A stretch of 24,598 nucleotides of DNA from the UHGV virus genome UHGV-0258679, one strand, 5' to 3'. Below the pieces are notes generated by a model. That model had not been told where the DNA came from and did no database searches. It was given only the letters and a program-made list of their open reading frames with translations. A program made the translations under genes and the position numbers. This DNA comes from a virus. This document shows positions 841 through 24,598 of the stretch, one piece after another (position 1 is the stretch's first letter; every line of letters begins with the position of its first letter).

Positions 841-843
841 GCA

Positions 844-1644: not shown

Positions 1645-1682
1645 GCCCCTATCGTTATAATACGCGGTAGGGGCGTTTTTGT
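1645..1682 (+). terminator. rho-independent terminator (GCCCCTA / loop / TAGGGGC, then GTTTTTGTTT)
   Basis: 7-bp stem and T-run between the stop at 1628 and the recombinase start; could also be part of a recombinase attachment site (dyad symmetry). Confidence 0.5.
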
Positions 1683-1693
1683 TTGGAAATGGT

Positions 1694-3373: not shown

Positions 3374-3411
3374 GCGGCCTAAATCGACGTATAACGAGCT
3401 AAACACTTTAA

Positions 3412-3434
3412 GGGGTACATCTGTACCCCTTTTT
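3412..3434 (+). terminator. rho-independent terminator (GGGGTAC / loop / GTACCCC, then TTTTT), at a convergent junction
   Basis: GC stem with a T-run directly after the recombinase stop; plus- and minus-strand genes converge here. Confidence 0.6.
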
Positions 3435-3446
3435 AATTTAATTGTA

Positions 3447-4445: not shown

Positions 4446-4480
4446 AGTAGTGAATCCTCAATAAAATAATATTCACTACT
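4446..4480 (-). promoter_or_regulatory. perfect 10-bp inverted repeat (AGTAGTGAAT, 15-nt spacer, ATTCACTACT) abutting the start codon of the 332-aa gene
   Basis: Seen directly in the sequence; the spacer contains the probable SD (GAGG); a TATAAAT -10-like hexamer lies just upstream on the minus strand. Confidence 0.4.
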
Positions 4481-4491
4481 ATTTATAAGAA

Positions 4492-4893: not shown

Positions 4894-5209
4894 TATGCGT
4901 AAAGGTTTTATATTTTCCTAAGCCGTATTGAGTAGGATATTTCCCATCAAGATAAGCATGAACAATATCAGGCGAGACACCCTTGATAACAATGTCAGCC
5001 GCACGGCCTCGAACGTGATAGCTATTGGCTGCCCCGCCTACATTCTTGTTATGAGTCGGGCAACGGTTGCCACTGTTAATAATCACTGGTTTACCGAAGT
5101 GCTCTCGTACATCCTCAAGAATCACCAGTAATTCAGCGTCGATTGTATCATAATCACATTTTCCGCATTTACATTTAAATTCCTTGCGAGAAAAATGCTT
5201 ACTTAACAT
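4856..5209 (-). CDS. peptidase M15 family (M15A, YcbK/DUF882-like) zinc peptidase; candidate endolysin
   Basis: Motifs SGNRCPTHNKNVGGAANSYHVRGRAADI and FTHIDSR match the conserved M15 zinc-ligand signature; RBS AGGGGGT; small size (117 aa) typical of phage M15 lysins. Confidence 0.75.
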   Translation of the reverse strand: MLSKHFSRKEFKCKCGKCDYDTIDAELLVILEDVREHFGKPVIINSGNRCPTHNKNVGGAANSYHVRGRAADIVIKGVSPDIVHAYLDGKYPTQYGLGKYKTFTHIDSRSKKSRWNG

Positions 5210-5218
5210 ATTACCCCC

Positions 5219-5566
5219 TTAGATCATTTCGAAGATATAACCAATAAAGCGCATACCCTTGATATAATAAGGAGCAGTGCCTACACACACCGCGCGTGCA
5301 TCGCCCAGACAGTTAAAGCTATAAGGATTAACCACATCAACTTCTTGCCCTACACGAAAACGATACTTAGGACGTTTAGCCAATGTAGCGACACAAAACA
5401 CGGTCCCTTTTTCATGATCGCGGATACATTCTTTATATTGTTTATGTTTAACTCTCTTCGCCTCAAAATCATGAGTCATTGATTCTGGGCTAATGCCATT
5501 AATAAAAATACCGGAAAGCTGATCGACCGGATAAGTAGGAAATTCAGTAAAAATATTTTTAGCCAT
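5219..5566 (-). CDS. hypothetical protein, 115 aa, translationally coupled to the M15 peptidase
   Basis: RBS GGGGGT; its stop overlaps the RBS of the peptidase gene. Confidence 0.5.
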   Translation of the reverse strand: MAKNIFTEFPTYPVDQLSGIFINGISPESMTHDFEAKRVKHKQYKECIRDHEKGTVFCVATLAKRPKYRFRVGQEVDVVNPYSFNCLGDARAVCVGTAPYYIKGMRFIGYIFEMI

Positions 5567-5604
5567 GTTATACCCCCATAAGATTCTATGAGGGTATTTA
5601 TTGA

Positions 5605-6288
5605 TTAAACGTATTTCATGCGCGATTTAATGTGCTTATTGATGTTTTCAAGCATCATTGCTTCGTTGCTTTCCCACGATCCTAGCGTCGAATAACGAGT
5701 AGAAATTTTATCCGATTTAACGGCAACAATTCGCTTGCTCTGTTTCTGTATGCGTTTCTCTAAGCGACGTTTTGCCACCGCCGATCCATTCCTAGCGCGT
5801 TTGGTTCGGGATTTCTTAGGCTTGTACTTCTTCATGATAAAAGTCCCTTCCTTGTTCTCTACCTTGATGAAGTTGCCGTTTTCGAGGTTACGCATCATCT
5901 TACCGCCTTTGATGGCCTTAATGTTCCCGTGGGCGTCTAAGACCTTGCCGTTAGCGATTGGAACTAGCTTATTGATTTTGCCACCATCGAAATAGTGTTT
6001 CAGATAGTCATCCTGACTGCCGATCTTCTTGTCCTTATCCCTTGCGCCCTTGATGAAGATTTGGTGTCTCGTCCCTGATCGGTTCTTGTAGTTGGTATTA
6101 CCTACCGCTTGCTGAGTCCAGCGAGTAGGTCTATCAACATTCTTGTTAATCTTCTTCTGGAGTGCTCTGGAAGCAAAGATCGCCCCTTCCCCTAGTGCCC
6201 TTTCGAATGTATTGGTTGCCTTTTCAGACCATTGCCTCAACGCTTTCTTAGTCCTTAGAGCGTTTCGTTTATTGGTACTGGTTGCCAT
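5605..6288 (-). CDS. highly basic (Lys/Arg-rich) hypothetical protein, 227 aa
   Basis: RBS AGGGGGC; strongly basic composition throughout; no motif recognised. Confidence 0.5.
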   Translation of the reverse strand: MATSTNKRNALRTKKALRQWSEKATNTFERALGEGAIFASRALQKKINKNVDRPTRWTQQAVGNTNYKNRSGTRHQIFIKGARDKDKKIGSQDDYLKHYFDGGKINKLVPIANGKVLDAHGNIKAIKGGKMMRNLENGNFIKVENKEGTFIMKKYKPKKSRTKRARNGSAVAKRRLEKRIQKQSKRIVAVKSDKISTRYSTLGSWESNEAMMLENINKHIKSRMKYV

Positions 6289-6298
6289 GTTAGCCCCC

Positions 6299-6460
6299 TA
6301 ATAACGAAAAGACCCCCGCCAGTGTCCTTAGCAATTGTTCATCCACGGTCATAGCCGGGAGTTCAAGCCCAAAGGACGTTAGCAGAGGTCTAATAGCTAC
6401 GTTATAAGTGAGGGCGACAATCAAGAGATAACCAAAATATTTCTTAAGTTTATTCTTCAT
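6299..6460 (-). CDS. small membrane protein, 53 aa (MKNKLKKYFGYLLIVALTYNVAI...)
   Basis: Hand-translated, not in the ORF track; RBS AAGGGG 7 nt upstream; one clear hydrophobic helix; no Cys, so not a lipoprotein. Confidence 0.4.
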
Positions 6461-6478
6461 ATATTCACCCCTTTATTA

Positions 6479-6757
6479 TTATTTTTGTTTGAGTATGTCG
6501 AGAACTTGGTCAAATTTGGCGTCCATCGCAACCACTTTCTTCTCTATACCGTGTAGTGTTTGTTCCATTTGGTAAACACGTTCAGCAATCTGAGTATGGT
6601 TATTCTGCATCGTCTCAAACTTCTGGTTTAACAATGCGTCGCTGGATTCCAATTTCGACAATCTATTTTCTGTGGCTAATTGATTTCGGTGAAGTCTCCA
6701 AAGCCCACCACAAATTAAGGCGATAACACCGATACCGCCATATATAATTTCAGTCAT
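6479..6757 (-). CDS. signal-anchored coiled-coil membrane protein, about 92 aa (i-spanin-like or superinfection-exclusion-like architecture)
   Basis: Start moved to the internal ATG (MTEIIYGG...) preceded by GGGGGCGTA; N-terminal TM segment IIYGGIGVIALICGGLW then a predicted coiled coil. Confidence 0.45.
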   Translation of the reverse strand: MTEIIYGGIGVIALICGGLWRLHRNQLATENRLSKLESSDALLNQKFETMQNNHTQIAERVYQMEQTLHGIEKKVVAMDAKFDQVLDILKQK

Positions 6758-6799
6758 TACGCCCCCGATATTTTTATAATTTAATGGCAAAATTATTTA

Positions 6800-6842
6800 G
6801 ATAAAAATAATCCCGCCTAACTCAAAAGAATTAAGCGGGATT
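6800..6842 (-). terminator. rho-independent terminator after the tail tip gene (8-bp stem AATCCCGC/GCGGGATT, T-rich tail)
   Basis: Inverted repeat seen directly in the sequence, followed on the minus strand by ATTTTTAT. Confidence 0.5.
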
Positions 6843-6860
6843 AATTATAAAAATTAAATT

Positions 6861-9800
6861 TTAAGAAACAGAAATACCAGTAGCGGCTTTCTTAGTTACC
6901 ATTACCGTTAGATCGCTGATATATGCATTTGGGTTATAGTCGTTAACGCCCTTACAGTAAACTTCAAAAGTCATTGTTACTGCCCCGTGTCCGGCTGGCA
7001 TGTCAATAACTCCACTGTACATACAGCCAGAAGTTGCAGTGCGATCATATAGAACACCACCATTTTTCTTAACGATTAGTCGGCAAGTATCCCAAAGATC
7101 GCCACTACTGTTGCCACGACGTTCAGACCCGTTATGATGAATCGCTGGAATCACTATTTGGCGATCGAATGGATGATCATCTTCGACCCTTACAGTGATT
7201 GCACCATCAGGCCAGTTTGGTTGGCGATGTGGGAAACTCCTACCAACCACTTTCACGAAGTCACCACGCACCTGATTAGCATCAAGCATACCCAAAATGC
7301 GGCAACTTGAATTAATCGTTACGTTGTTCATTTCGCCGGAATCAGCCACCAAATGACCACGAATATTAGCGTGTCTAAAATGACAAGTGCCATCTTTGCC
7401 AATATACCATCCATCGTTACCATTCCAGTTATAAGACTGGATATAGTTACCGATTTTAGCATTATCGATAGAGCCATCAATAATATGTCCCGTTCCGATC
7501 TGTGCGTGTTGGATGTGAGCGCCGTTAATCTGGGCTGTGCCGATCTTAGCCGTGGTAATAGCCGCATCACTAATCTGGGCTGTGCCAATTGCAGCATTAC
7601 GAATCATCGCATTATCGAGATAAACTTTGTTATCTTCGATGCCAAACGGACAAACTTCTGATCCGTCTTGTGGAGCTACCGCGATTTTATCAGCCGTAAA
7701 GATGATTCTCGTCGGTTCTGCCGGATCATTGGTTGCGCTCATATGAATACCGGCCACGCGACCATCTGCATTAACCGCCAGATTATATTTGCTGTTAATG
7801 GTTCCCTTCAAAGCATCGATTTTTACATCTGCTTCCTGATTCACACCAGCAATCTTGCCATCCATTTCTACCCGAACTTGATCAATCTTACTTGCGCTTG
7901 CTGCCTCACTGGTAGCAATTGCTTGTTTCAGGGTAGTAGCAGATGCGCTAACTTCTTTGGTGATATCGCCTTTCAGTTCAGCTTTAACCTGATCAATCTT
8001 AGTTGCGCTGGCTTGCTCACTGGTAGCAATCAGACTCTTGAGAGTATCGGCTGAGGCTTGGACCGTCTGCCCTGTCTCGGTAGTAATCTGTTTATGCATT
8101 GCATCAATCTTAGCATCGGCATTAGCGCCAGCTTGAGCAATAGCATCCGCGATGGTTTCATCTAAGCGATCTTGTAAACCAATCAGGTCTTCCAGTGCTT
8201 CTTTGTCCTGATCGTCCCAGCTAATGGTAGATTTCATTTGCATGAAATACGGTTCAGACCAAACAGCATCATCCATACCGAAAATATCATAGTGAGCACC
8301 ACGGATATAATAATCACCGTCAGCCAAATCAAAGGAAGTATGACTAACGCTATTGGTAGTCACTGCCCTTGCATCGGAGAAAGTATTATCGGTTGCATAC
8401 TGGATGATTGACCCTGCATAGTCATGTTCTACGTCATCCGCCCAGCTAACAAACGCAGTATTAAAGCCACCACGCGCACTAAAACCTTTCATCGGCTTAT
8501 GTTGTGGGTTGATAGCCACTAAACGCGCTGGGGCGCTCTCTGAGTTGTTATAGCCCTTAACGGATACTTCTACCGTCAATTCACGGGAAAGGCCGTTAAA
8601 CTGGTTCATATCAAGCGTATAAGTCCATGATTCAGGATCGCGGGTACGGTACTGAATAGACTTACCAGCCTTGTTAGTTACCTTGATAATGTATGCTTCA
8701 AACAGGTCACTAAACTTGTTAGCTTCACCGTTGATCATCACATCTAATTGTTGCTGGTTATCCCATTCGATAATCAGATCGTTGCCTTCGAAAGTACCAG
8801 GTGAACTACCCTGATTTTTGATGCGGATCGCTGGCGTAGGCAGTTCATAGGTAACTTCTGGATTCTGGTTAACCAATTCCACCCATTCGGAACGAGCAAT
8901 AATACCGAAAGCACAAACGCGGTAATCGTAGGAACGATCTTTAGCCAGTGCATTGATATTGAAAATTTGCTGTGAAGTCTGTCCCAGCTTAATCCAGTTA
9001 GGTGATCCACTCACACGGTAATCAATCTGGAAACCGTAGCGGTTGAAATCTTCCGGTGCATCCCATGTCAAAGTTACGTTTTTACCGTGGATTGTCTCAC
9101 CAGTTGCCTTAATTCTGAAATTAGTCGGTTTCTGTACTGTCATTGAATCCGGTAAACCAGTAGGTCTATTGTCTGGATTCGCCGCATAGTTCAGGTCAGT
9201 ATAAACCTGAGAATTATATTCTGTGGCGGTGATAGTCATCATCCCAGCAATACCAGAATCAATAGAGCGATCAATTGCAGTAATACGCCAAAGTGAATTA
9301 TTCAGTTTTAATTCATCATAGGTTACGCTAATAACATCCCAAACTTCGGCAGTGAATGCGTCAGTAGTCATAAAGCTGATAACCTGAGTGATACGAGATT
9401 TATTTCGTTCTACACTCGCTAGTTTATCAATCTGGGCTTTAGACTTAACAAAACGATATTCAATATCTTTAGCGATAATTCGACCATCTTGACGAATAGT
9501 AGCATCGTTTTCAGCATCAGCCGGATAACGCAGCATTTGCTCTGAATAGTCGATTGATGGTTCTTGATACATCGCGTTAATGGTATTGAAATAACCGTTA
9601 GTGCCACCTGTTTTCAGTGATACTTTTCCCATCATGATATTGTCTTCATTGAAGGTATGCTTAACAATATCAGGAGCATCCAGTTTCAGGGTAATTCTTC
9701 CAAAGGATTCGAACATTACCCCGCCGAAAGTCTGCATAAGACTGGTCAAGTTCTCTTTAAAGCTGGCGTTCGGATCACATGCACCGTTGGAATGTAGGTC

Positions 9801-10610
9801 CATCTGGCGTACTTGTTTACGCACTTTCAGGAATGAATCAACGTTAATGTTTTCAATTGGTACGGATAAGCCATATTTTTCATTTGTTAGGTAGTGGAAA
9901 ATCTGATCCACGCCGTTAGTGCTAGCCTCAATAGCATTGGTTTCGAGGTTACGGATTTTTAAGCCCATAACATCGACTGCCACTTGGCTATTTGGTTGAA
10001 GGATATCAACACCAGCAGCCAAAGATTTATCGTCACGACGTAACACAATACACATGGTCGCAATGCCGTTACCCTGATACCGATCATCCCAATCTGCGCC
10101 CAAATGATGTTTAGCCAGATCCAATGCAGTGTTAGGATTTTTACCAGTGCGAAACTCGACTTCTAACACTTTGCGGTATTCGTCTTTAATGTTTCCTTTA
10201 TCGAGAATACCATCACGAATTGTCATATTCTGACTAATGAGAACATTTTTATTATCGATGTGTAGTGCTTTAAAATGATCAATCTCACCTTCGGAAATAG
10301 CAAAAATTTGTACCAGTTTGTTGTTTTCACGTTGTGAAATTGCTTTGTAAACGCAGATTGCACCCGTGCGGGTAGTACCGAAAAGAACGGGTAATACTGT
10401 CTTAGGATCGTTTGATGTTCCTAGTGTCACCGCATTATCTGGGCTTTGTACTTTCGGTGTTTTTGGTGCGCCTACAGTGGAAGCGATCAAGGTCATTGCA
10501 CCAGCAGCCATACCGATAGCGACTGCGGTCATAACAGAAAATGTTGCAGCAGCAGCCATCCCAGCAGACGCACCAGCAATAACCGCGCCTACTAATATTT
10601 CAAATCCCAT
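6861..10610 (-). CDS. tail tip / central fibre protein, 1249 aa: lambda gpI-like C-terminal segment fused to a gpJ-like host-specificity protein
   Basis: N-terminus (Gly/Ala-rich hydrophobic stretch then APKTPKV...VLPVLFG) resembles the C-terminal part of lambda gpI; FN3-like segment in the middle; C-terminal ...DDHPFDRQIV...DMPAG...VMVTKKAATGISVS aligns with the receptor-binding C-terminus of lambda J as I recall it. Confidence 0.8.
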   Translation of the reverse strand: MGFEILVGAVIAGASAGMAAAATFSVMTAVAIGMAAGAMTLIASTVGAPKTPKVQSPDNAVTLGTSNDPKTVLPVLFGTTRTGAICVYKAISQRENNKLVQIFAISEGEIDHFKALHIDNKNVLISQNMTIRDGILDKGNIKDEYRKVLEVEFRTGKNPNTALDLAKHHLGADWDDRYQGNGIATMCIVLRRDDKSLAAGVDILQPNSQVAVDVMGLKIRNLETNAIEASTNGVDQIFHYLTNEKYGLSVPIENINVDSFLKVRKQVRQMDLHSNGACDPNASFKENLTSLMQTFGGVMFESFGRITLKLDAPDIVKHTFNEDNIMMGKVSLKTGGTNGYFNTINAMYQEPSIDYSEQMLRYPADAENDATIRQDGRIIAKDIEYRFVKSKAQIDKLASVERNKSRITQVISFMTTDAFTAEVWDVISVTYDELKLNNSLWRITAIDRSIDSGIAGMMTITATEYNSQVYTDLNYAANPDNRPTGLPDSMTVQKPTNFRIKATGETIHGKNVTLTWDAPEDFNRYGFQIDYRVSGSPNWIKLGQTSQQIFNINALAKDRSYDYRVCAFGIIARSEWVELVNQNPEVTYELPTPAIRIKNQGSSPGTFEGNDLIIEWDNQQQLDVMINGEANKFSDLFEAYIIKVTNKAGKSIQYRTRDPESWTYTLDMNQFNGLSRELTVEVSVKGYNNSESAPARLVAINPQHKPMKGFSARGGFNTAFVSWADDVEHDYAGSIIQYATDNTFSDARAVTTNSVSHTSFDLADGDYYIRGAHYDIFGMDDAVWSEPYFMQMKSTISWDDQDKEALEDLIGLQDRLDETIADAIAQAGANADAKIDAMHKQITTETGQTVQASADTLKSLIATSEQASATKIDQVKAELKGDITKEVSASATTLKQAIATSEAASASKIDQVRVEMDGKIAGVNQEADVKIDALKGTINSKYNLAVNADGRVAGIHMSATNDPAEPTRIIFTADKIAVAPQDGSEVCPFGIEDNKVYLDNAMIRNAAIGTAQISDAAITTAKIGTAQINGAHIQHAQIGTGHIIDGSIDNAKIGNYIQSYNWNGNDGWYIGKDGTCHFRHANIRGHLVADSGEMNNVTINSSCRILGMLDANQVRGDFVKVVGRSFPHRQPNWPDGAITVRVEDDHPFDRQIVIPAIHHNGSERRGNSSGDLWDTCRLIVKKNGGVLYDRTATSGCMYSGVIDMPAGHGAVTMTFEVYCKGVNDYNPNAYISDLTVMVTKKAATGISVS

Positions 10611-11029
10611 TATTCACCCCCGAATCTATAAACTTGTTCATAGTCAATGTCTGAAACAGGAATGGTCATCCAGATACCATCTTCTTCAACGAGGCCATAA
10701 CCGGAATAATGAGGAACTACGGAATAATATTTGCGGTTTCCTAATTTGTGGGCTGTGACCAGTAAGTCGCCGTCCTGTAAATCATCAGTGACTAATTTGA
10801 AATGTTTCTTAATTGGTTGAAGGATATTTGAATACCCGCTTAATTCTTTGCAGATTTTCAAGCCTTCTTCTTTAGTTGAATATTTTTTATAAAGAGAATT
10901 ATATAGGTCAGTACCAGCGAGAATATCGATGATCTTACATGCAATTAGATTGCAATCATTCTCGCCTTGAACGAACTCCTGACCTATTAAAGAATTGATG
11001 TAATCGGTGATAAGCCTAGTTTTTAGCAT
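10610..11029 (-). CDS. minor tail protein, NlpC/P60-like (lambda gpK C-terminal-domain-like)
   Basis: Start chosen at MLKTRL, preceded by GGAGG; GENDCNLIACK resembles the NlpC/P60 catalytic-Cys region; stop overlaps the start of the J-like gene. Confidence 0.45.
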   Translation of the reverse strand: MLKTRLITDYINSLIGQEFVQGENDCNLIACKIIDILAGTDLYNSLYKKYSTKEEGLKICKELSGYSNILQPIKKHFKLVTDDLQDGDLLVTAHKLGNRKYYSVVPHYSGYGLVEEDGIWMTIPVSDIDYEQVYRFGGE

Positions 11030-11075
11030 GTTGAATACCTCCATGCTGTTATTTACTAGGCTTAAGGAGAAGGGA

Positions 11076-11729
11076 TTATTTCTTCGATGAATGCCACTTG
11101 CTTTCGCTATTCCACTTCCCGGCACGGGAGAAGAATAGATCGTTCTCGTTTCCAACATAGGATCGGTGGATACCATCGGAGGCATGACTTCGAGCGTTTT
11201 TATCTAGAACTTCCCAGATACTATTAAGCTGAAATTCTGATTCGTTTTTACACTCATCATCTTCATGTTCGATGTTAATCCCGATGGAATCGACTACCCC
11301 ACGGAAAACAGGGTAAGTGGTTTCAACCTTGCCCGTGTTAGGGTTCAGGAACACCATTTCGATTTTCACATCTGATTTATCGAATTGCTTGTTTCGAATC
11401 AGGGTAATGTATTCCTCGCGAACGTTAGAAACGGTTACGTTAATCCCGTTGTTGTTGATCTCCTTCTCTTCGGTATTCGATGAGATTTGAAGAAAGTCAC
11501 CCGTTGCGAGATATGTAAATCCATTATAGTCCAAATCGAAATACCCATCTGTAAGCCGTAGAACGTCCCCTGACGCGGTAATCACTTCGATAATGTGAAA
11601 CATCGATCCAGTGGAAAAAAGCTGCGGTAGCGTCAATCTAGACACATTCTGACCTGTCTGGTCGTTGTATACCTCGATGAAGTCCAGATTAGTGCATAGT
11701 TTGCTGAATGATTCCTGAATAGTTGCCAT
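11076..11729 (-). CDS. minor tail protein (gpL-like by position), 217 aa
   Basis: Synteny between the tape measure and the K/J-like genes; start overlaps the upstream stop; no motif recognised with confidence. Confidence 0.4.
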   Translation of the reverse strand: MATIQESFSKLCTNLDFIEVYNDQTGQNVSRLTLPQLFSTGSMFHIIEVITASGDVLRLTDGYFDLDYNGFTYLATGDFLQISSNTEEKEINNNGINVTVSNVREEYITLIRNKQFDKSDVKIEMVFLNPNTGKVETTYPVFRGVVDSIGINIEHEDDECKNESEFQLNSIWEVLDKNARSHASDGIHRSYVGNENDLFFSRAGKWNSESKWHSSKK

Positions 11730-12289
11730 TATACATTCTCCACTAATTCAAATTTCATCTTGCCGATCTGGGCGATCTTCCAATCGATATTTTCAGTTTT
11801 GAGAACAAATTCGCCTTCTACGTTCTGATACTTGATCACCTCACCAGCCAGGACGTTTTGACGCAAGTTAGGGAAGAGTTTCATTTCACCACCTGATTTC
11901 ACGTCTTCGGTGATCGTGTAGATTTTCTTGTGGTTCTCAAACTGGATGATAGTTCCCGCTTTCAGTGTTCCGGTGAAGTTGGATAGTCTTACCTTACGCC
12001 CACCGCGAGCAGTACCAGCAGCAGCCGTAACCATCTGGCGTACATCACCTGTATATTTTGAAAAGTAAGACAGTGGCACACTAAAAGGACGACCAAAAAG
12101 GTGACGTGCTACAAATTCTTTTACTTCGTTAATATCCTGAGCCATGAAATTAGCTGTAAATTCTGCTTCATAAAAATGAATACCAGTAAAGCGACGCTGG
12201 AACTTACCAGAAATAGATTGCGCCTTGAAGAAAGGCTGTTTTGATTTAAGAGTAAAATCTGTGATTTTAATATTCTTGGATTTGAACAT
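11729..12289 (-). CDS. minor tail / distal tail protein (gpM-like by position), 186 aa
   Basis: Lies immediately downstream of the tape measure gene in the tail module. Confidence 0.4.
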   Translation of the reverse strand: MFKSKNIKITDFTLKSKQPFFKAQSISGKFQRRFTGIHFYEAEFTANFMAQDINEVKEFVARHLFGRPFSVPLSYFSKYTGDVRQMVTAAAGTARGGRKVRLSNFTGTLKAGTIIQFENHKKIYTITEDVKSGGEMKLFPNLRQNVLAGEVIKYQNVEGEFVLKTENIDWKIAQIGKMKFELVENV

Positions 12290-12339
12290 AGAAAAGCCCC
12301 CATAGTTTTATGATTATTTATGACTATGGGGGCTTTTAA

Positions 12340-14682
12340 TTACATCTTACGGCGCTGTGCGTCTTCTACCGCCTGAGCAACTAACTTAGCGTGACGTTTG
12401 ATAGCATCCATGACCATCTTGTCTGAGCTATTAACGTTGCCGTTAATGTTCAAAGGCGCATTAACTTCAATCGGCTGAGAGTTACCACCGCCTGATTTTT
12501 GAGCAGCAAGGAAGTCTTTCAAATCGCCGTTAGTACGCTGATCAACTACTCGTTCACCCTTATCAAGCAACCATGTACCCTCACGCGGGATGTTATCGAT
12601 ACCATCATGAGCCATACCGCTAACATTAGTAGACTTGATGTTTGCAATGTTCCCCATGTTCTGAGAAACAGCCAATGCAGCAGCAGCGATCTTTTGTCCT
12701 GTGGTGACGTTGGTCGGATCGTTCCATGCATCGGTAGCAGCCGTCCACATGTTCACCGTCGCTTGTCCAATGGAGAATGCCTTATGAGCATTGAAAGCCA
12801 TCTGCATAGCCTTTGTGTTTTCTTGCCCGAAGAGAGTCATTGCAGCAGCAAAACCGCCATACATATCATCGGCTATTGACTGGCGAGCATCAGCATATTT
12901 CTTCTCAATTGCAGCCATTCGTTTTTGATGGTTTTCATTGAGTTTTTCTAATGCTTCCATCCGTTTAGCCGGATCGGTGATCCCATCAATCTTGAGTTTA
13001 TCGGTTTTATAATCTTGTTCCGCTTCCGATTTCTCTTTATCGATTGCATTAAATTTAGCAAACGGGTTATTTGAGTCTTGATAATCAAATCCACTGGTTA
13101 ATTGATTGGATTTAAAACCATCCATTCCCTGTAAATGACTATCAATCTGAGAATAGTTTTGCTCGGTATCATTCACACGACGCATATATTCTTCGTAGGA
13201 GATAGCTTTACCATCAAGTAACCGTTTATGGCTTTCTAACTCGTTGTCCCTGATTTGTTGCAAAACTGTTAAGGCATTCAAAGCATCAACCGGATCAGCA
13301 CCCAGCATCATTTTATAGATGTTTTCTGCGTTCTGGTCTAACAGTTGCTGACGTTTAGCGGCTGCGTCTTGCTGTGAGATTAAGCCCAGATCTAAAGCAG
13401 TGTCCAAATCTTTCAAGCTGGCTTCTAACTGCTTGTTTTGAGAAGCAATAGACGCGGCTGTCTGACCGTGCAATCTAACATCAAGAGCATTCAGCTTTTT
13501 AATTGCATCTTCACGCTGTTTCTGTGCTTTTTCTGCGGCCTTCCTTGCTTCTTCTGCCGCTTTTTCTGCTTCTTCTTGTTCTTTTTTTGTTGGTCCAGTG
13601 ACGCCTCCACCTTGACCCGTTGGGGTAAATCCGGTATCCGATTTATTTCCAGTGATAGTAATTACCGGATCGCCGTTTTTATCACGGGTAACTCCGTCTT
13701 TATCCACCCAACGATCAGGATAATTTGGTTTATTGTTGAAGCTGGCTTGTCCACCTGCTAGACCAGTAGAACTATAACCATGCTTGTTAATAAAACCACC
13801 GTTAGCCATAGCCATATTCTGGCGAGCTTTTTCAAACCTTTCATTAAAAGTCTTTAATGCGTTAAATAAAGCGGTCTTTTCCCAATCTTTATCAAACCAG
13901 TTGTATAACTTGTTCATCCCTTCAACAACTGGATTTAGCGCATTTGCAGCCATACCCTTTAAGTTATCGGTAAGGGTATCCATATTTTTAGAGAATTTAT
14001 TATATTCTTCGGCTGTATCATTGGTGATTTTAACAGTTTGCTGATTAATGGCGTTTACAGCTTCCTGATAAGATCCGTATTTCTGCAATTCATCAGCCAT
14101 ATGACTTGAATCACTGGCTAACGATTCCATCATAAACTTAACATCAGCGATAGACGCACCAGCCTTGCGCATATCATAGAAGACCTTGATCGCCGCTTTC
14201 ATCCCGCCTTGTGGATCGTTCATAAACTCGGCATAATCTTTAATCTTCAAACCTACACTTTCTAGGTCATCTTCAATACCGCCACCATTACGCCACGCAT
14301 CAGCCAGTTTATCTAAGGTGTCTTTGTTAATATCACCAAATTTCTCAACGGTTAAGCCAGTACCGGAGAATTGCTTCTCTAATTTCTGGAGTGTTTCGAC
14401 GGTTAAACCAGTTGCTTTTGAAACTTCGCTGTATTCCTTTACATAATCACCGATGGCATTTGCAGCAGAGACAGCACCAGCAGCCAGACCAACAAAACCA
14501 CCAGCAGCCAAAGCAAGCGATCCACCAGTTCCGCGAAGGGTTCCACTTAAACTAGATAAACCACCAGACAAATCAAGATTCATTGCCCTTTCTGAAAGGT
14601 TATCAAGCATGTCAATCGCTTGGTTGGTACTTCTCCTTAGACCGTCATTATTCCCTTCTATTGTTACTATATGTCTTGTCAT
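12340..14682 (-). CDS. tail tape measure protein, 780 aa
   Basis: Position after the chaperone pair; Gly/Ala-rich hydrophobic segment (LALAAGGFVGLAAGAVSAANAIG), long helical/coiled-coil regions and an EEAEKAAEEARKAAEKAQKQRE stretch typical of tape measure proteins. Confidence 0.8.
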   Translation of the reverse strand: MTRHIVTIEGNNDGLRRSTNQAIDMLDNLSERAMNLDLSGGLSSLSGTLRGTGGSLALAAGGFVGLAAGAVSAANAIGDYVKEYSEVSKATGLTVETLQKLEKQFSGTGLTVEKFGDINKDTLDKLADAWRNGGGIEDDLESVGLKIKDYAEFMNDPQGGMKAAIKVFYDMRKAGASIADVKFMMESLASDSSHMADELQKYGSYQEAVNAINQQTVKITNDTAEEYNKFSKNMDTLTDNLKGMAANALNPVVEGMNKLYNWFDKDWEKTALFNALKTFNERFEKARQNMAMANGGFINKHGYSSTGLAGGQASFNNKPNYPDRWVDKDGVTRDKNGDPVITITGNKSDTGFTPTGQGGGVTGPTKKEQEEAEKAAEEARKAAEKAQKQREDAIKKLNALDVRLHGQTAASIASQNKQLEASLKDLDTALDLGLISQQDAAAKRQQLLDQNAENIYKMMLGADPVDALNALTVLQQIRDNELESHKRLLDGKAISYEEYMRRVNDTEQNYSQIDSHLQGMDGFKSNQLTSGFDYQDSNNPFAKFNAIDKEKSEAEQDYKTDKLKIDGITDPAKRMEALEKLNENHQKRMAAIEKKYADARQSIADDMYGGFAAAMTLFGQENTKAMQMAFNAHKAFSIGQATVNMWTAATDAWNDPTNVTTGQKIAAAALAVSQNMGNIANIKSTNVSGMAHDGIDNIPREGTWLLDKGERVVDQRTNGDLKDFLAAQKSGGGNSQPIEVNAPLNINGNVNSSDKMVMDAIKRHAKLVAQAVEDAQRRKM

Positions 14683-15455: not shown

Positions 15456-15926
15456 TTAGACTTTCTGGAAAACAGCTTGTTTAACCGGAGCACCATCTAC
15501 TACAAAGGTGAAAGAACGACCTACTACAGCATCTTCACCGCCCGTCATGGTAGTTTTAGACAGGAAGCCGTTATAAGCGATGTGCACACCAGATTTTTTC
15601 GTAGCGTCGATGTAGTAAGCAATTTTAAGCTGTACGCGCTTACCGTCTTCGGTTGCTTTAATCAGTTTTTCGTGTACTTCGTTACCCGGCATGTAGTTGA
15701 TCGAAAGTTCGATATCCGGTACAGACATACGACCAACCAGCTTACGGTTATAAGCACCAGAGAAGTTAGGAACATCGATCGTAGAACGTTCTACACCAGT
15801 TTCAGGGAAAGCCGCACATTCTGGAATTTCCAGATAGCTTTCACTGTCAAGATCGGTGTTAGTTACTTCTTCATGCAGAAACAGACCAACGAGGCCACCA
15901 GAAAAAATATCAAATTTAGTAGTCAT
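15456..15926 (-). CDS. major tail (tube) protein, lambda gpV N-domain-like, 156 aa
   Basis: Position immediately upstream of the G/T chaperones; RBS AAGGAAAAG; segment ...INYMPGNEVHEKLIKATEDGKRVQLKIAYYIDAT... resembles the lambda V N-domain as recalled; strong terminator downstream. Confidence 0.6.
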   Translation of the reverse strand: MTTKFDIFSGGLVGLFLHEEVTNTDLDSESYLEIPECAAFPETGVERSTIDVPNFSGAYNRKLVGRMSVPDIELSINYMPGNEVHEKLIKATEDGKRVQLKIAYYIDATKKSGVHIAYNGFLSKTTMTGGEDAVVGRSFTFVVDGAPVKQAVFQKV

Positions 15927-16925: not shown

Positions 16926-19900
16926 TTACCCTAATTTAGCTTCAATTGCAGCAAGACGTTCACGAAGAAGTTTATTTTCTTCGCTCATTTCTTGGACCGC
17001 TTTAATTAAAAGCGCGTTCACTGCGGAGTTTGAAATTGTTAAAATTTCTTCTGGGTTATCAAAACCACCAATTTTTGCGGTTTTAACAGCTTCCGGTAAT
17101 ACCTCTTGTAAATCCTGTGCGATAATACCAATCTCATGACCTATAACTTCTCGGTCATTAAGAGATTTAACTTTATCGTAGGTTTTAACTTTGAGTTTAT
17201 TTACCTTATCCACCGCATTTTCTTCGTAATCTTCAACATTAATTTTCAGACGACGATCGGAACGAATATAAACATCGTTAAAGTTTCCGTTACCAGTGGC
17301 ATGAAATTCTCCACTTGCATGGAATTGATAATCAGCACCCTGAACATGAAGAACCGCTGCCGCAGTATTATTACTATCACCGGGACAATGAACGTCCATA
17401 GCAGCGATGTAGTTACGCCCCCAATCAACCGCTTTCCAAATAGCATGAGCACTATCAACGCTTTGTTGACAGTCAACCAACAAACCAGCAGGTCGGTCTC
17501 TCCATGCAACATATGCACCACCAGAAACCTCACCACGGATAAGTCCTTGATCTGCGGCATAAGGAACACGCCCTTCCAGTTTAATCATCGCGCCCTGGAA
17601 GTGATGTGTAAATTGTCCACCGTGGTTATTGCGAATATGTAAAATACCCTCATCTGTAGCCCAGATAACAGCCTTTTCCGTATCGCTATCATCTCTAAAC
17701 CAGATATGGCGTGCACCAGTTGAGTTTTTGACGGTTATTCCGTTAGGTCCATGCACGGTCAAAGCACCAGATACATCAAATAAAACGGTGTTGTCTGTTC
17801 TACGTTCAGTATAGAAGTGATAACCTTTGGAATCGCCAACTTCCATTACTGCCGCGCGACCAACTTCTGAATTTCCCCAATTATTAATAGAGAATCGTTC
17901 AGAGCTATTATTCATCTGATTTAGGTATAATGTACCATCAGTGAATGTTTCGCCAAAGAAACGAGTTTTAACGCCGTTAGTACCCCCCACGCGTTCAAAT
18001 TCAGCCAAGAAACCTTTGGAATCTCGCATACTCAAAACGTTATTGCGTCCTGTATTACTGTTACCCCAATGGATTAATTCAATATAGTCCATTGACTGAC
18101 GAGACCCTGATCTAAACACCATATTATCTTCGATGCGGGTGCTACCATCAATTCCCAGATGTAAACAGCGTGCGGTAGCTGTGCCACCTAGATCCAATCC
18201 ACCTTCGGCAAAATCATAGCTGAATGGTCTACGGCTATTCCACCCACCGAAAGAATCTTTTAAATCGGTAGTAAGAATATGGAAGCTAGAACCATCATTT
18301 CTAAAAATTAAGCCATAGTTGCCACCTTTAACAGCCAAACGAGCATTTTCAGATAATGCAACTTCGCTATTCATTACAATTTTCTGGCCTTTACCGCCAG
18401 TAATATGTAATTCACCGTTTTCGATCAAGTTTATAGAGTTTTGACCGTTATCGTTCCACCAAATAAAATCTTTGGTCGTCAAATCACCAAAACCAAACCA
18501 ACCATTACGAACATCTTGACCAGTGCGATAATCCATGAAATTAAAATGGCTTGCTTCGTTTGGTCCTCGACGAATATCAATACCAGCATTAGAACCGGAA
18601 CCTAAGCCACCATCGATGGTCAATCTACGAATATGTAACCCGGTTGCAGCCGAAAGCAATAATTGTTGGTTTACATCGTCATATCCAGTAGCAAGACGAT
18701 AATTTTGATCATCAACAGTTTCATGCCAGATAGTGGCAGGAGCAGAACTACGGAAGCGACGCAACATCTTTTTGCTGTTAGTTTGTTGTTCGTTCAAATG
18801 CTCAATGTCATATTGGCCTTGATGGTTTCCAGCAAAGTTTAACGTCCCACGGTTGCTAAAGTTATTGAACGATGAAATGTTAAGAGCATCAAAAATTTCA
18901 TCTGCAACAGGTTTTTCACCACCCAGATATTCAGGAGTATCCAACAGGTTTAAAGAAACACCACCGGAAGAAACTTGATATTCTGCTAAAACAAATCCTG
19001 TATGTGCACCGTAGTAAGCGTAAAGATCATAATTGTCGCCATCGGTTGGAATAGCGCAAAAATGTTGTTCATAATGCCAAATAGTATAATACGCATTGAA
19101 TACAACACCTTTCGGGCTATTGTTGCCGCATCGAATCACCAATTCGATAATATTGGCTTGTCCATTCTGTCCGACGTTATAACCGTTGCCACCAACTAAG
19201 CGGATCTTAGCCGTGCGACCGTGTTGTTGTGGCATTGTCAAAGTGCCTAGTTTAAACCAACCGCCCTCGATACCAAAATTAAGCGTCTTCTGGAACAGGC
19301 GGTCAATTTCTGCTTTCGAATATGCGCCAATTTCAGCCGGAGTAGGTTTATCGCCTTCATGATACATGCGGTGAGAATATGCCAAATGTCCCAATTCATC
19401 ATAGCCGTATGTTCTTACAGTAGCATGTGGATTAGACCCATAAGTGAACTCGAAGCCACGAGCATGATTAACACCAGATGGATGGGGAACATGCAAGATC
19501 ATAGCAATATGACCCGCCAGGTCATTCATGCGAAATGCACCAAAGTAATCAAGATTAAGAGCACTCGGATCATCAAAAGGGTTTGCGGTCTTAGACAGCA
19601 AATAACCATCAGTATAAGTGTTTACGTGTTTTTTGATGTACTTGCCATCACTTGATCCATCGGCTGCATCAATACGGCTTTCTAAGCGTGCCAATTCAGA
19701 ATCAGTGTAAGACTTGTTATTGTCAACTTTGCTATGAATTGCTGTATTTTTGGCTTCAACATCACGGGTTAATGCTGCGACGTTATCCGCTGCCTCTTGC
19801 TTATTGGCTGCAATCACACCAGTAAGGTTATTGTAGGTGTCAGTTAACTGATTTTCCGCATAGGCGTGATTTGCTGCGATAGTGCGGTCAGTTTCTGCCT

Positions 19901-20456
19901 TAATCAAATCAACTTTGTCATTGATTGCTTTGTGATTGCTTACGATGGTTGCATCGGTACGGGATTTAATATCATCAACTTTTTTATTGATGCGGGTGTC
20001 CAGTTCCTGAGTTGCTACAGCAGCCGCATTTTTATTAGCGTTGATGGTATCCGACAATTCAGCTTTAACACCAGCAAGATCGGAAGCAGCTTTATTTTTA
20101 TTGGCCTCGATTGTCGCGTCGGTTTCGCGTTTAATTACATCAACTTTATTGTTAATTTCTGCGTGATTTGCTGAGATGGTTGCATCAGTAGTTTGTTTAA
20201 TTTCATCTACTTTAGCGTGAATATTGCGGTCATTTACTGCAATTGTGCTATCTAGTTCTTGTTTGTTAGCATCAACTTTAGATTCTAGTGCCGCGTGAGT
20301 TTCAGGAGAAACAGAGATTTGAACTACTTCATGATCTCGGTCTTTGGTAAAAATAACATGGTCTTTAAGGTTGATTGCTACCTCACCGACCTGTAATTGT
20401 TCCGGCGTTGGCTTTTTGCCAGCTACATTAGTTCGCTTAAATTGGATTGATTGCAT
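16926..20456 (-). CDS. long tail fibre, 1176 aa, with N-terminal repeat shaft and C-terminal intramolecular chaperone (peptidase S74-like) domain
   Basis: About seven tandem 22-aa repeats of the form KVDxIKxxTDATIxAN; C-terminus ...SDRRLKINVEDY...GIIAQDLQEVLPEAV... matches the endosialidase/T5 L-shaped-fibre chaperone signature; RBS GAGGTGA. Confidence 0.8.
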   Translation of the reverse strand: MQSIQFKRTNVAGKKPTPEQLQVGEVAINLKDHVIFTKDRDHEVVQISVSPETHAALESKVDANKQELDSTIAVNDRNIHAKVDEIKQTTDATISANHAEINNKVDVIKRETDATIEANKNKAASDLAGVKAELSDTINANKNAAAVATQELDTRINKKVDDIKSRTDATIVSNHKAINDKVDLIKAETDRTIAANHAYAENQLTDTYNNLTGVIAANKQEAADNVAALTRDVEAKNTAIHSKVDNNKSYTDSELARLESRIDAADGSSDGKYIKKHVNTYTDGYLLSKTANPFDDPSALNLDYFGAFRMNDLAGHIAMILHVPHPSGVNHARGFEFTYGSNPHATVRTYGYDELGHLAYSHRMYHEGDKPTPAEIGAYSKAEIDRLFQKTLNFGIEGGWFKLGTLTMPQQHGRTAKIRLVGGNGYNVGQNGQANIIELVIRCGNNSPKGVVFNAYYTIWHYEQHFCAIPTDGDNYDLYAYYGAHTGFVLAEYQVSSGGVSLNLLDTPEYLGGEKPVADEIFDALNISSFNNFSNRGTLNFAGNHQGQYDIEHLNEQQTNSKKMLRRFRSSAPATIWHETVDDQNYRLATGYDDVNQQLLLSAATGLHIRRLTIDGGLGSGSNAGIDIRRGPNEASHFNFMDYRTGQDVRNGWFGFGDLTTKDFIWWNDNGQNSINLIENGELHITGGKGQKIVMNSEVALSENARLAVKGGNYGLIFRNDGSSFHILTTDLKDSFGGWNSRRPFSYDFAEGGLDLGGTATARCLHLGIDGSTRIEDNMVFRSGSRQSMDYIELIHWGNSNTGRNNVLSMRDSKGFLAEFERVGGTNGVKTRFFGETFTDGTLYLNQMNNSSERFSINNWGNSEVGRAAVMEVGDSKGYHFYTERRTDNTVLFDVSGALTVHGPNGITVKNSTGARHIWFRDDSDTEKAVIWATDEGILHIRNNHGGQFTHHFQGAMIKLEGRVPYAADQGLIRGEVSGGAYVAWRDRPAGLLVDCQQSVDSAHAIWKAVDWGRNYIAAMDVHCPGDSNNTAAAVLHVQGADYQFHASGEFHATGNGNFNDVYIRSDRRLKINVEDYEENAVDKVNKLKVKTYDKVKSLNDREVIGHEIGIIAQDLQEVLPEAVKTAKIGGFDNPEEILTISNSAVNALLIKAVQEMSEENKLLRERLAAIEAKLG

Positions 20457-20529: not shown

Positions 20530-21363
20530 TCAGTATTCCCCGAAGTCGATCCTGTCATGGATAGAAACGGCTTCAATCTCGGCTGGTGTCGGTTTTTCTT
20601 CTGTGGAATACACTTTCACCCATCCAGAATTACCATCTTTCTGGACTGTGCGAACTCGTAAACGTGGTGCGCCGGAAGCGGTGCAAGTTAATTGCCATCC
20701 ACCATCTTCATTAGGTTGAACGTGAATTAGTGAAGTATCAGCACTAAATGGGTTAGATGCGCTCGATCCCTGATAGGTTACGAAACGGTTTCCGGCTAAT
20801 GCCTCGCTATCAATCGGACCAGTGAATGGGCTAACGCCTGAGCCTACGCCATAATCCCCTTGTCGCAGAATTTTTCCCTCGGTCGCTATACCCCTTGCGA
20901 GAATCCCGCCATCTGGTTCAAGTTTAAATTCCATTGTTACCGCTTTGTTATCACTACCACGGGTTTTGTGACTAGTGACATAAGCATCATAGATGACATA
21001 GTAACCAGTGTTAGCAGCACTATAGCCAGAGTTCACAACATAGAACATTCGGAAGCGTAAAGGTGTTTTATCCTCTACCGCTTTCATCAACATTGCTTGA
21101 TGTTCGTCATCCAGAACACGGTTTAACATGAGTGTTGTCGGTTCCAGTTTACGATAACCAGCAAGTTTCCCCGTAGCGTCCTGGTCATACTCTTCTAACG
21201 TCTGGATCTCTGTAGATTCGGTGATCGTAGGGAATGCTGCGATGTTCTCGATAGGACTAAATGCAGGATCGAAAAAGTCCGGCTGGTTATCCACCATAGT
21301 AGACACGGAGACTTCAACATGTGACCCCGTGAAAATGTCTAAGTTATCTTGTGTAATATTCAT
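20530..21363 (-). CDS. virion structural protein, 277 aa, ending in a KPTPAEI motif shared with the tail fibre (candidate fibre-associated or decoration protein)
   Basis: Position between the head-tail genes and the fibre; C-terminal ...EEKPTPAEIEAVSIHDRIDFGEY parallels GDKPTPAEIGAYSKAEIDR and KKPTPEQLQVGEVAIN in the fibre. Confidence 0.4.
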   Translation of the reverse strand: MNITQDNLDIFTGSHVEVSVSTMVDNQPDFFDPAFSPIENIAAFPTITESTEIQTLEEYDQDATGKLAGYRKLEPTTLMLNRVLDDEHQAMLMKAVEDKTPLRFRMFYVVNSGYSAANTGYYVIYDAYVTSHKTRGSDNKAVTMEFKLEPDGGILARGIATEGKILRQGDYGVGSGVSPFTGPIDSEALAGNRFVTYQGSSASNPFSADTSLIHVQPNEDGGWQLTCTASGAPRLRVRTVQKDGNSGWVKVYSTEEKPTPAEIEAVSIHDRIDFGEY

Positions 21364-22165: not shown

Positions 22166-22266
22166 GCTGTGGCTTTCGCCGTAACCTCTTGAACTTCTTC
22201 TTCCTGAGATGGAATCAGATTTTCTTCCCCCAAATCGGGGGAAGGTTCAGAAGGTTCTACGCTAGT

Positions 22267-24273
22267 TCATTCAGCGGAGATATGAAGAACTTTCAGAGCT
22301 TCCGGCTGAACTACGGTGAAGTCCAGGTCTACCCAGATACGCGGAACGATAGCAGACTGTGCACGGTAGGTAGTGTCATCCATATCCAGTTCCAGACCAC
22401 CCCATTCGCCGATCATGATACCGGAGAAGTCACCCAGAACGATGTGATCTGCCGGAATAACACCAGAAGTAACTACATCGTAACCAGCCAGTTTACCGTT
22501 TTCGATGATATAACCGGAAACGCCGTTATCTTTCAGGGTAGATTCCAGTTCAGCAGCAGTCGCACCGCTCATCGCAAACTTGATCGCCTGAGCAGGAACG
22601 CCAGCGTCGGTCAGTGCTGCAATTTCTTTCAGGAAGTCTTTGTAAGAGAAAGCGGCTTTCTTAGCAACGCGACCACCATCTACCAGTTGTTTAACCAGAC
22701 CAGCCGGACCACGAGTATTGTCTTTGTCAGACAGAATCAGTTGTTCCAGTTTGATGCGAACAGCTTTGTTAATATGATCAGTGATCAGGGTAGCAATATT
22801 CGGAACAGTTTTCAGAGACTGACGGCTGATCGGGTTGCCACCAGCAAAAGTTTTCGGAGCCATTTTCACGTTTGCAAATTCCGCCTTCGACTCGGGGGCA
22901 CTTCCATTTTCGTCCACAAAACCAAAGGCATCGACGCTGGAAGCAGTCATTTTCGGAACAGCGATCGGGCTATTCAGACCAGACAGAACAGTCACACCCA
23001 GACGACCCAAAACAGACTGCGGAAGCAGCATTTCTACATAGGATTCGGTCAGCAGTTTTTCGTCAGTTACAGCGGTCAGAGTAGCTTTGGTGTTACCTTC
23101 GGAAGCAGCACGCAGAGCAGCAGCCGGAACGAATACAGAGCCACCGCGAGCAGCACGACCACGCTGCATTGCAGCACCAGCAGCCATAGCGGAATATTCA
23201 GCTTCGTTAGCACCCAGAGCAGCACCATCTACCAGAGAGCGAATTACGTTGTTCAGGTCAAAAGTTTTTTCCATTTTAGAGTCCTTAATTTGTTCGTTGT
23301 TACGTTGAGCAGTAGCGATTTTATTTAGTGCCTTAGTGCGGAATGCTTCCGGCGTAATTTCTTTATTTGCCAATGCTCGTTTAAATTCTTCATCGTCTTC
23401 GTTAATATTTAACTCGCGTGCAATTTCGCGAATTTCTAATTCGTCTTCTTCGGAACGTTCAGCCACTTCCTCGGTTTTTTCTTCTTCAACCGGAGCGGCT
23501 TCACGTTCTTCTTTTACTTCTTCTTCCCGAACAGTTGAACTATCATCATCAACACTTTCAGGATGTTTAGCGTCTTTTCCGTCTTCGAGATTTTCATCTT
23601 CTTTATTCTCTTCAACTTGGCGCTCTTGAGTTTTTTCAACTTCCGGTTCTTTATTTTCTTCTACCGGAGTTTCTTCAACCTGAGCGGGTTCTTGTTCTTC
23701 TTTGATTTCTTCGATTTGTTCTTTAGTCATATCGCGTTTAGCCTCCAAATTAACTGTGATAGTATTTAGAGAGCGATTTAAACCGACAGAATCATCGGCA
23801 GGGACCGTCACAAATGAAATTTCAAAAGGTTCCCACTTAGTAACAATCAATTGTCCTTTGGCGTAATCGATGCGATATTCTTTAATGTCATAGCCGACAG
23901 AAATTTTTTCCATCGTACCTTCAATGACTTTATTACGAATATCATTAGACAAAGTGCCATGCTTGGAGAATTTAACCAGAGCACGGCCTACGTTATCCGC
24001 ATCGATTCGAGCGTTACAAACGACACCAATGTGATTATCGAAAATATGATTGAACAGCAACGGAGCGTTATTATTCAGACGAGACAGATCAACCGCTTCC
24101 GGTGTATGTACCAGAATTTCATCTAATACCACCATTTCTTGATTTTGCTCATCCCAGAATCGGCGCTGATAAGGCTGTTCACTGGAGAAAGCAATTTCAA
24201 ATTCGTATTGATCATTCTGCCCTTCGTTAATAACTCCACCGTAACCGTTAATATCGCGGCGAAATTTAAGCAT
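22267..24273 (-). CDS. fused prohead protease (HK97/U35-S78-like) - acidic scaffold-like linker - HK97-fold major capsid protein, 668 aa
   Basis: N-terminal about 170 aa resembles caudoviral prohead serine proteases (including ...EISFVTVPAD...); the middle is an E/K-rich low-complexity region; the C-terminal about 300 aa is capsid-like; RBS AAAGGTGG; strong terminators downstream. Confidence 0.8.
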   Translation of the reverse strand: MLKFRRDINGYGGVINEGQNDQYEFEIAFSSEQPYQRRFWDEQNQEMVVLDEILVHTPEAVDLSRLNNNAPLLFNHIFDNHIGVVCNARIDADNVGRALVKFSKHGTLSNDIRNKVIEGTMEKISVGYDIKEYRIDYAKGQLIVTKWEPFEISFVTVPADDSVGLNRSLNTITVNLEAKRDMTKEQIEEIKEEQEPAQVEETPVEENKEPEVEKTQERQVEENKEDENLEDGKDAKHPESVDDDSSTVREEEVKEEREAAPVEEEKTEEVAERSEEDELEIREIARELNINEDDEEFKRALANKEITPEAFRTKALNKIATAQRNNEQIKDSKMEKTFDLNNVIRSLVDGAALGANEAEYSAMAAGAAMQRGRAARGGSVFVPAAALRAASEGNTKATLTAVTDEKLLTESYVEMLLPQSVLGRLGVTVLSGLNSPIAVPKMTASSVDAFGFVDENGSAPESKAEFANVKMAPKTFAGGNPISRQSLKTVPNIATLITDHINKAVRIKLEQLILSDKDNTRGPAGLVKQLVDGGRVAKKAAFSYKDFLKEIAALTDAGVPAQAIKFAMSGATAAELESTLKDNGVSGYIIENGKLAGYDVVTSGVIPADHIVLGDFSGIMIGEWGGLELDMDDTTYRAQSAIVPRIWVDLDFTVVQPEALKVLHISAE

Positions 24274-24318
24274 TTAACCACCTTTAATTAATTGGGGGCA
24301 TTGCGCCCCCGTTGGTTA

Positions 24319-24462
24319 TTAGGGATCGGCTGGGGAATTTTTTTCTTCACCCTCGCCATTAACGATAATATTTAGTGCGCTCTTTTCGGCTTGAATCTCT
24401 GAGAATACTTTTTCAGGATCATCACCACGTTCTAATATAACGGCAGTACGTGATTTAAGAAC
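24319..24462 (-). pseudogene. 3' fragment (47 codons, no start codon) of an upstream phage ORF, truncated at about 24462
   Basis: Frame open from 24462 to the stop at 24319-24321 (...GEGEEKNSPADP*) with no Met and an in-frame stop at 24463-24465; the interruption coincides with the start of the IS-like sequence. Confidence 0.4.
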
Positions 24463-24598
24463 CTATCCCAAAAGGAATTGTCAGATCGAAAATAATGGCA
24501 ATTTTTGAGGGCGAAGTATGACGGGCAACAAGTGGCAGATCAGCGATGAACTCTGGGAGAAAATGGCTCCACTTCTCCCGGAACATAAAACCCACCAT
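24463..24598 (+). mobile_element. left end of a putative insertion sequence (IS4/IS5-superfamily-like), continuing beyond the window
   Basis: Transposase-like ORF start plus the abrupt truncation of the upstream phage ORF; terminal inverted repeat could not be verified because the other end is outside the window. Confidence 0.45.
24519..24598 (+). CDS. transposase N-terminus (partial): MTGNKWQISDELWEKMAPLLPEHKTHH...
   Basis: RBS GAGGG 8 nt upstream; SDELWEKMAPLLP matches the conserved 'DEQWxxIEPLLP' N-terminal motif of IS4/IS5-type (DUF4096) transposases, from memory. Confidence 0.5.

Follow-up and report, generated by a model that had tools for sequence, protein, structure and literature searches.

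A prohead protease, scaffold-like domain and HK97-fold capsid precursor in one open reading frame of an Escherichia coli/Shigella prophage, with a candidate internal start behind the protease

Viral head proteases and the assembly proteins that accompany them are encoded in several gene arrangements. Phage HK97 uses two genes, gp4 for a protease of family PF04586, which is targeted non-covalently, and gp5 for a shell protein whose N-terminal scaffold domain, 102 amino acids (aa) long, is cut off by that protease. In lambda (C/Nu3), herpes simplex virus 1 (HSV-1; UL26/UL26.5) and the archaeal virus HFTV1 (gp17/gp17.5), an in-frame internal start past the protease domain yields an abundant protease-less assembly protein besides a rarer full-length protease form (bioRxiv 10.64898/2026.09.13.751334). 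P2 gpO carries its protease covalently joined to a scaffold and removes itself by autoproteolysis, the capsid protein gpN being encoded by a separate gene (HFTV1 preprint, bioRxiv 10.64898/2026.09.13.751334). In a further arrangement the protease is joined to the major capsid protein itself, and this is the arrangement of the gene described here, which lies on the minus strand at 22267-24273 of the virus genome UHGV-0258679 (24,598 nucleotides (nt), the whole stretch being referred to as the window). As an architecture the fusion is familiar, already named and common, with this gene as an uncharacterised enterobacterial member; a candidate internal start behind its protease domain appears to be a possibly unreported and testable lead of moderate interest.

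Among described systems, gp6 of roseophage vB_DshS-R4C (R4C) and the capsid genes of the Rhodobacter Cronusvirus/RcC cluster (PDB 8gta; PMC10276861, PMC8601537) contain the same parts in the same order, namely an S78 protease, a linker, a helical region and an HK97 fold, although the hosts there are alphaproteobacterial rather than enterobacterial and the acidic spacer is longer in the window gene. According to the list of open reading frames (ORFs) of the window, the gene is a single ORF with an ATG start, encoding 668 aa (73.6 kDa), and the 629-aa R4C gp6 is colinear with this protein over its full length at 27% identity. The PHROGs family phrog_617, named 'major head protein', aligns with aa 20-663 (E 4.9e-96), and phrog_4523, named 'major head and protease protein', also matches (E 2.7e-41), the protease and capsid domains lying in one uninterrupted ORF that is colinear with family members. 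An AlphaFold model built on 102 diverse homologues, with a mean predicted local distance difference test score (pLDDT) of 82.7, shows three confident folded modules (20-169, 270-394 and 410-668) with disordered segments at 170-269 and 395-409 between them. The features of the gene are as follows.

22267-24273, minus strand: the whole ORF, comprising protease, spacer, scaffold-like domain and HK97-fold capsid precursor (ORF list, PHROGs, colinearity with R4C gp6)
23767-24216, minus strand: prohead serine protease domain, aa 20-169, S78 with an assemblin-like fold (Pfam, fold comparison)
24046-24048, 23899-23901 and 23821-23823, minus strand: codons of the invariant residues His76, Ser125 and Glu151, in that order (family alignments)
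23467-23766, minus strand: acidic disordered spacer, aa 170-269, 11.7 kDa, isoelectric point 4.2 (composition, pLDDT below 50, alignment occupancy 0.24-0.5)
23092-23466, minus strand: conserved helical domain, aa 270-394, 13.6 kDa, scaffold-like or delta-domain-like (model, alignment)
23047-23091, minus strand: flexible loop, aa 395-409, predicted maturation-cleavage region (pLDDT below 50 between confident domains; alignment with 8gta)
22270-23046, minus strand: HK97-fold capsid shell domain, aa 410-668 (Pfam, PDB, Foldseek)

Domain annotation and fold models thus bear out the sequence-only reading of this DNA insofar as it placed a protease, a scaffold-like part and an HK97-fold shell in one polypeptide, whereas its description of the linker between them needs revision, as set out below. 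The capsid gene is overlapped by a 379-aa antisense ORF (22189-23328, plus strand) with a translation rich in Ser, Arg and Phe, which is taken as a non-coding by-product of the opposite strand.

The fusion is widespread. An exhaustive search of 1.84 billion cluster representatives (clusters at 50% identity) found 7032 relatives, with 497 clusters at E <=1e-30, and 148 of the best 150 representatives are fused, being 540-780 aa long with both halves matched. The same continuous ORF is present in 120 close relatives, in 47 complete E. coli genomes carrying at least 80% of the region, and at 144 loci from two collections. The idea that the fusion is an artefact, arising from a sequencing or assembly error or from a recent frameshift or stop-codon loss in this copy, could draw on the damage that the prophage has suffered elsewhere (an insertion sequence in its portal gene), but it is already refuted by these counts and deserves practically no credence. 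Fusions of this kind are also familiar from other viruses. In actinophages of clusters AN, AU, AW and EE, 'major capsid and protease fusion' is a routine annotation term, and by that term they share an N-terminal protease on the major capsid protein in one ORF; N-terminal proteases fused to major capsid proteins are likewise described in Paracoccus prophages (ClpP-gpT; PMC6536676) and in thaumarchaeal proviruses (S78-capsid; PMC6563490). Some of these other fusions use unrelated proteases (ClpP/S14, chymotrypsin-like) or an unrelated capsid family (Mu gpT), so that fusion has arisen repeatedly. Two further candidates for precedent were set aside, the Staphylococcus papers because they concern separate genes and a CBASS paper because it describes a protease-scaffold fusion with no capsid fusion. 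The novelty implied by the sequence-only reading does not survive a PHROG name, an actinophage term, published papers, hundreds of clusters and a solved capsid as precedent. The fusion matters chiefly for annotation: the public record with 100% identity is entitled 'major capsid protein [Shigella flexneri]', and this usual label hides the protease and falsely suggests that such phages are without one.

The protease assignment rests on family, fold and conservation. Peptidase_S78 (PF04586) matches aa 40-162 with E 2.8e-10; the score of 41 bits exceeds the cut-off of 21, and the match spans positions 23-149 of the 165 in the profile. A PDB search with a profile of the protease domain returned chance matches only, and fold comparison was therefore used instead; aa 20-169 are modelled as a confident beta-rich domain, and the N-terminus takes up a prohead-protease/assemblin fold. 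The HK97-type prohead protease proposed from the letters alone is accordingly confirmed by a Pfam match above threshold and by the structure model. His76, Ser125 and Glu151 are 100% invariant both in an alignment of 149 fused proteins of 28-89% identity and in one of 102 sequences, and in the former the motifs flanking them are at least 90% conserved. From motif resemblance, His76 and Ser125 are presumed to be the equivalents of HK97 His65 and Ser114. A degenerate pseudo-protease that serves only as extra scaffold, with maturation proceeding without cleavage or by a host protease, is very improbable given such invariance over very divergent sequences and given that the capsid chain in the virion of the relative R4C is without the N-terminal 361 residues.

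Between protease and shell, the sequence-only reading had placed a scaffold-like linker of about 150 aa rich in Glu and Lys. The acidic stretch is real, residues 176-335 containing 36% Asp and Glu with a net charge of -31, but the region is longer, at about 230 aa, and is not uniform, being divided into a spacer and a helical domain. Across the 149 fused proteins the spacer (170-269) varies in length and is weakly conserved, and the acidic stretch 181-260 is mostly gapped in other members, whereas 261-400 is kept. The part from 270 to 394 is modelled as six helices with pLDDT 86-96 and has an occupancy of 0.7-0.95, its conserved positions including I281, F311, E357, G378, P383 and R388. It is also where the separate capsid precursors found in unfused relatives match best, and the 'major head protein' profiles phrog_10 and phrog_2263 reach into it. 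Judging from model and alignment, the helical domain is the better candidate for a scaffold or delta domain than the acidic low-complexity stretch, which is more spacer-like.

The shell domain is matched by Phage_capsid (PF05065) over aa 410-664 (E 7.5e-26; 91.6 bits against a cut-off of 24.2) and by the sequence of the R4C capsid in PDB 8gta (E 1.6e-26). Its model (pLDDT about 90-98) retrieves the R4C capsid 8gta first in Foldseek, followed by the capsids of phiXacJX1, RcGTA, SaPI1, D3 and HK97, with E values of 3e-20 to 1e-12 against R4C, RcGTA, D3 and HK97. Shell formation has been shown for the 28%-identical R4C protein (PMC10276861). The chain in 8gta is the C-terminal 268 of the 629 aa of gp6, and its first residue lies opposite Asp404 of the window protein. 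By analogy, this fits a predicted mature shell protein of about 265-274 aa and 28-29 kDa from which some 400 N-terminal residues have been removed. Neither the papers on the structure and genome of R4C nor one on marine-phage proteomics mention protease or cleavage. The protease family and the capsid fold are those of HK97, and an N-terminal scaffold domain would likewise be removed by the protease, but here all parts come from one ORF and the removed part would be about 400 aa.

The best explanation of these data, and a highly probable one, is a polyprotein capsid precursor in which an S78 protease (20-169), a spacer (170-269), a scaffold-like domain (270-394) and a shell domain (about 400-668) are made in one piece and separated by maturation. 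The shell domains would assemble into a procapsid, probably of T=7, with scaffold-like domain, spacer and protease facing inward, and the covalent tether would deliver the protease to the interior with no targeting peptide. Concentrated inside, the protease would cut the loop around 395-409 and degrade the internal parts, so that the mature shell subunit would have about 28-29 kDa, as in R4C virions. Protease and substrate are joined by a tether, but the cis-acting maturation suggested earlier goes beyond the evidence, and cleavage may be intramolecular or may take place between neighbouring procapsid subunits. As an additional element, for and against which the chances seem evenly divided, ribosomes would also begin at Met182 and produce a scaffold-capsid protein of 487 aa without protease, so that the particle would be a mixture of two forms. 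The two sequence elements concerned are the following.

23728-23730, minus strand: Met182 ATG, candidate in-frame internal start (conservation, enrichment of ATG with Shine-Dalgarno sequence, unfused relatives)
23742-23746, minus strand: GGAGG, a Shine-Dalgarno-like motif with a spacing of 11 nt to the Met182 ATG downstream

A nested product of residues Met182-668 would have a mass of 52.9 kDa. The calculated duplex with the anti-Shine-Dalgarno (SD) sequence is stronger at Met182 (-9.3 kcal/mol) than at the gene's own start (-7.8), there being SD sequences at both starts as in lambda. The site is kept in 120 of 120 close relatives, 29 of which have GGGGG instead of GGAGG, a change of Glu176 to Gly that retains pairing through G-U wobble. 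Farther away, the aligned position is also a Met in Escherichia phage DCP80 (44% identical) and in R4C (27%), where the SD differs in sequence, and in the protein-level family alignment the density of Met 11-20 residues past the conserved Arg167 is twice the background. Met334 (23272-23274), with AAGGA 7 nt upstream (-5.8 kcal/mol), was considered as a second internal start and is likewise present in all 120 close relatives; it shows no family-wide enrichment and is probably no start.

At the DNA level, the family was sampled twice independently, through 50 non-redundant viral genes from IMG/VR and 54 non-redundant genes from bacterial genomes, the latter collected with a degenerate DNA pattern. 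ATG codons with a strong SD peak at +10 to +29 codons in the IMG/VR genes and at 0 to +39 codons in the bacterial-genome genes. The best energy of SD and start combined is -5.86 kcal/mol at the boundary against -3.03 in control windows for the former set (p 3e-11) and -5.97 against -2.99 for the latter (p 1e-10), and windows reaching -6 kcal/mol or lower make up 42% against 14% and 48% against 13%, respectively. In the IMG/VR set, synonymous recoding weakens the boundary SD by 2.06 kcal/mol, against 0.26 in control windows (p 2.5e-8). Strong SD-like signals also occur inside the protease domain (bin -20 to -11), where they mostly accompany GTG or TTG codons, with three ATG, and were judged a by-product of conserved amino acids.

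A natural comparison is provided by relatives in which the two halves are separate. Of the 80 informative genome loci that share the protease motif, 18 are unfused (L086, L094, L095, L099, L104, L117, L121, L122, L132, L139, L156, L157, L175, L177, L181, L190, L195 and L197), each encoding a protease of roughly 200 aa and, immediately after it, a capsid precursor of roughly 500 aa. In these 18 the protease ORF ends 32-64 residues past the motif, and in five studied in detail a capsid precursor of 487-503 aa begins at or beside the protease stop codon, four of the five having an ATG with a recognisable SD. These precursors align to the family profile from about window residue 180 on, helical domain included, and the predicted Met182-668 product is therefore their counterpart. 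The unfused loci can serve as natural 'split' controls for the fused genes.

From the sequence evidence, the genes of this large family of protease-capsid fusions may each have two outputs, a proposal that stands at an even balance: an internal ribosome-binding site with its ATG would yield a protease-less scaffold-capsid form, and the ratio of the two starts would set the number of proteases per procapsid. The same signals suggest that not every capsid subunit need carry a protease. In lambda, HSV-1 and HFTV1 the two products are demonstrated, whereas here they are predicted, and the nested product in those viruses is a free scaffold with the capsid gene separate, whereas here it would be scaffold and capsid together. 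A description of nested starts for protease-capsid fusions was not found in full-text literature searches, and the R4C papers do not discuss an internal start or processing.

A rather less than even chance is given to the alternative that there is a single product, all subunits being the full 668-aa chain with protease, and that the internal ATG and SD are an unused relic of the ancestral gene boundary or a translational pause that aids folding of the protease. The unfused relatives offer a source for such a relic, and the fusion is stable across hundreds of clusters. Yet the SD is kept at the level of synonymous codons (an excess of -2.06 kcal/mol against -0.26), the ATG itself is enriched at the site, and the signal is present in lineages only 27-44% identical with differing SD sequences, where an unselected motif should have decayed. 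The fused genes also mostly cluster apart from the unfused ones, an unfused gene being the nearest neighbour for 6 of 144. With regard to space, 415 full-length chains would fill about 55% of the cavity of a T=7 procapsid and the same number of short chains about 30%, a rough estimate that uses the HK97 radius; it makes a mixture of full-length and short forms attractive and proves nothing.

Several points weigh against the polyprotein precursor with a second, shorter product. The 268 residues of the R4C chain could reflect the modelled extent rather than a mapped N-terminus, and in this gene and lineage the cleavage, the place where it would occur and a second product are predictions. The sequences in the statistical tests are related to one another, so that the p-values overstate independence. 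The spacing of 11 nt between SD and ATG at Met182 is above the usual optimum, and a strong SD at the boundary is present in only about 40-50% of members, leaving about half of the family without it; some members have no Met there. The SD and ATG could be a leftover of gene fusion, and the same 6 of 144 nearest neighbours mean that fused and unfused forms are partly interspersed.

The neighbourhood of the gene is that of a head module. In its context, the window is part of an E. coli/Shigella temperate siphophage-type prophage with a head module like those of RcGTA and Cronusvirus, and the region recurs in 47 complete E. coli genomes at 90-95% identity. The closest is a 94%-identical, intact prophage in E. 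coli UTAK-14 (L001; NZ_CP168998.1, around 3.165-3.187 Mb), whose coding strand reads terminase, a 164-aa ORF, a lambda-type portal, the fusion gene, three small ORFs, a tail fibre and tail genes. The portal lies directly upstream of the fusion gene in L001, in R4C and in DCP80 alike. The order portal, protease, capsid is also that of HK97 (bioRxiv 10.1101/2025.06.14.659615). The three ORFs between the fusion gene and the tail fibre gene (96, 156 and 277 aa) have no match to a protease or scaffold family, which agrees with the earlier claim that no separate gene of either kind lies between the capsid gene and the tail genes. The relatives were also inspected for such a gene immediately upstream, beyond the window, and have the portal there; neither the window nor L001, R4C and DCP80 gave any recognisable protease or scaffold gene beside the fusion gene on either side, a small scaffold of unrecognisable sequence being possible.

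In the window itself, the portal gene is interrupted, as the features upstream of the fusion gene show.

24318-24454, minus strand: 3' remnant of a lambda-type portal gene, about 47 codons (megablast colinearity with L001, which has a portal coding sequence directly upstream)
24455-24598, strand not assigned: terminal part of an insertion sequence of the IS5 family (88-98% identical to IS5-family transposase regions of many plasmids)

The L001 portal matches PF05136 (E 7.5e-64), and the intact portal of related prophages has 503 aa. The IS5-family element cuts the portal gene 141 nt before its stop codon and is lacking in the relatives, so that this prophage copy is probably defective and unable to make heads.

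Other parts of the window and of its relatives deserve mention in their own right. The tail fibre gene (16926-20456, minus strand, 1176 aa), which separates the head from the tail module, shares 85-92% DNA identity with genes for the distal subunit of gp37-type long tail fibres in lytic T-even phages of E. coli and Shigella, and nothing else in the window matches the phage collection; the sequence comparison points to a recent mosaic exchange of this gene between a temperate siphophage-type prophage and T4-like phages. The 277-aa ORF (20530-21363, minus strand), which follows closely on the head genes, has an N-terminal domain of the tail-tube family phrog_158, to which the tail tube gene at 15456-15926 also belongs, and a C-terminal half with no family assignment. 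A large serine recombinase (1679-3373, plus strand) with Resolvase, Recombinase and zinc-ribbon domains is presumably the prophage integrase. The G+C content of the window, about 40-45%, is well under the E. coli average. The record of DCP80 (L003, PQ671644.1) comprises 140,978 bp and is filed under Straboviridae (T4-like), but its bases 1-13786 are a siphophage-type module of terminase, portal and fused capsid, all of whose genes are annotated 'hypothetical', and the record is possibly a product of chimeric assembly.

A genuine internal start would account for control over the dosage of the protease and for the avoidance of an overfilled procapsid despite a fusion in every copy of the capsid gene. 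It would also provide a bacterial example, in a third gene arrangement, of the nested logic common to lambda, herpesviruses and an archaeal virus, and self-contained assembly and maturation of a capsid could then be studied simply, with a single gene that can be expressed in E. coli.

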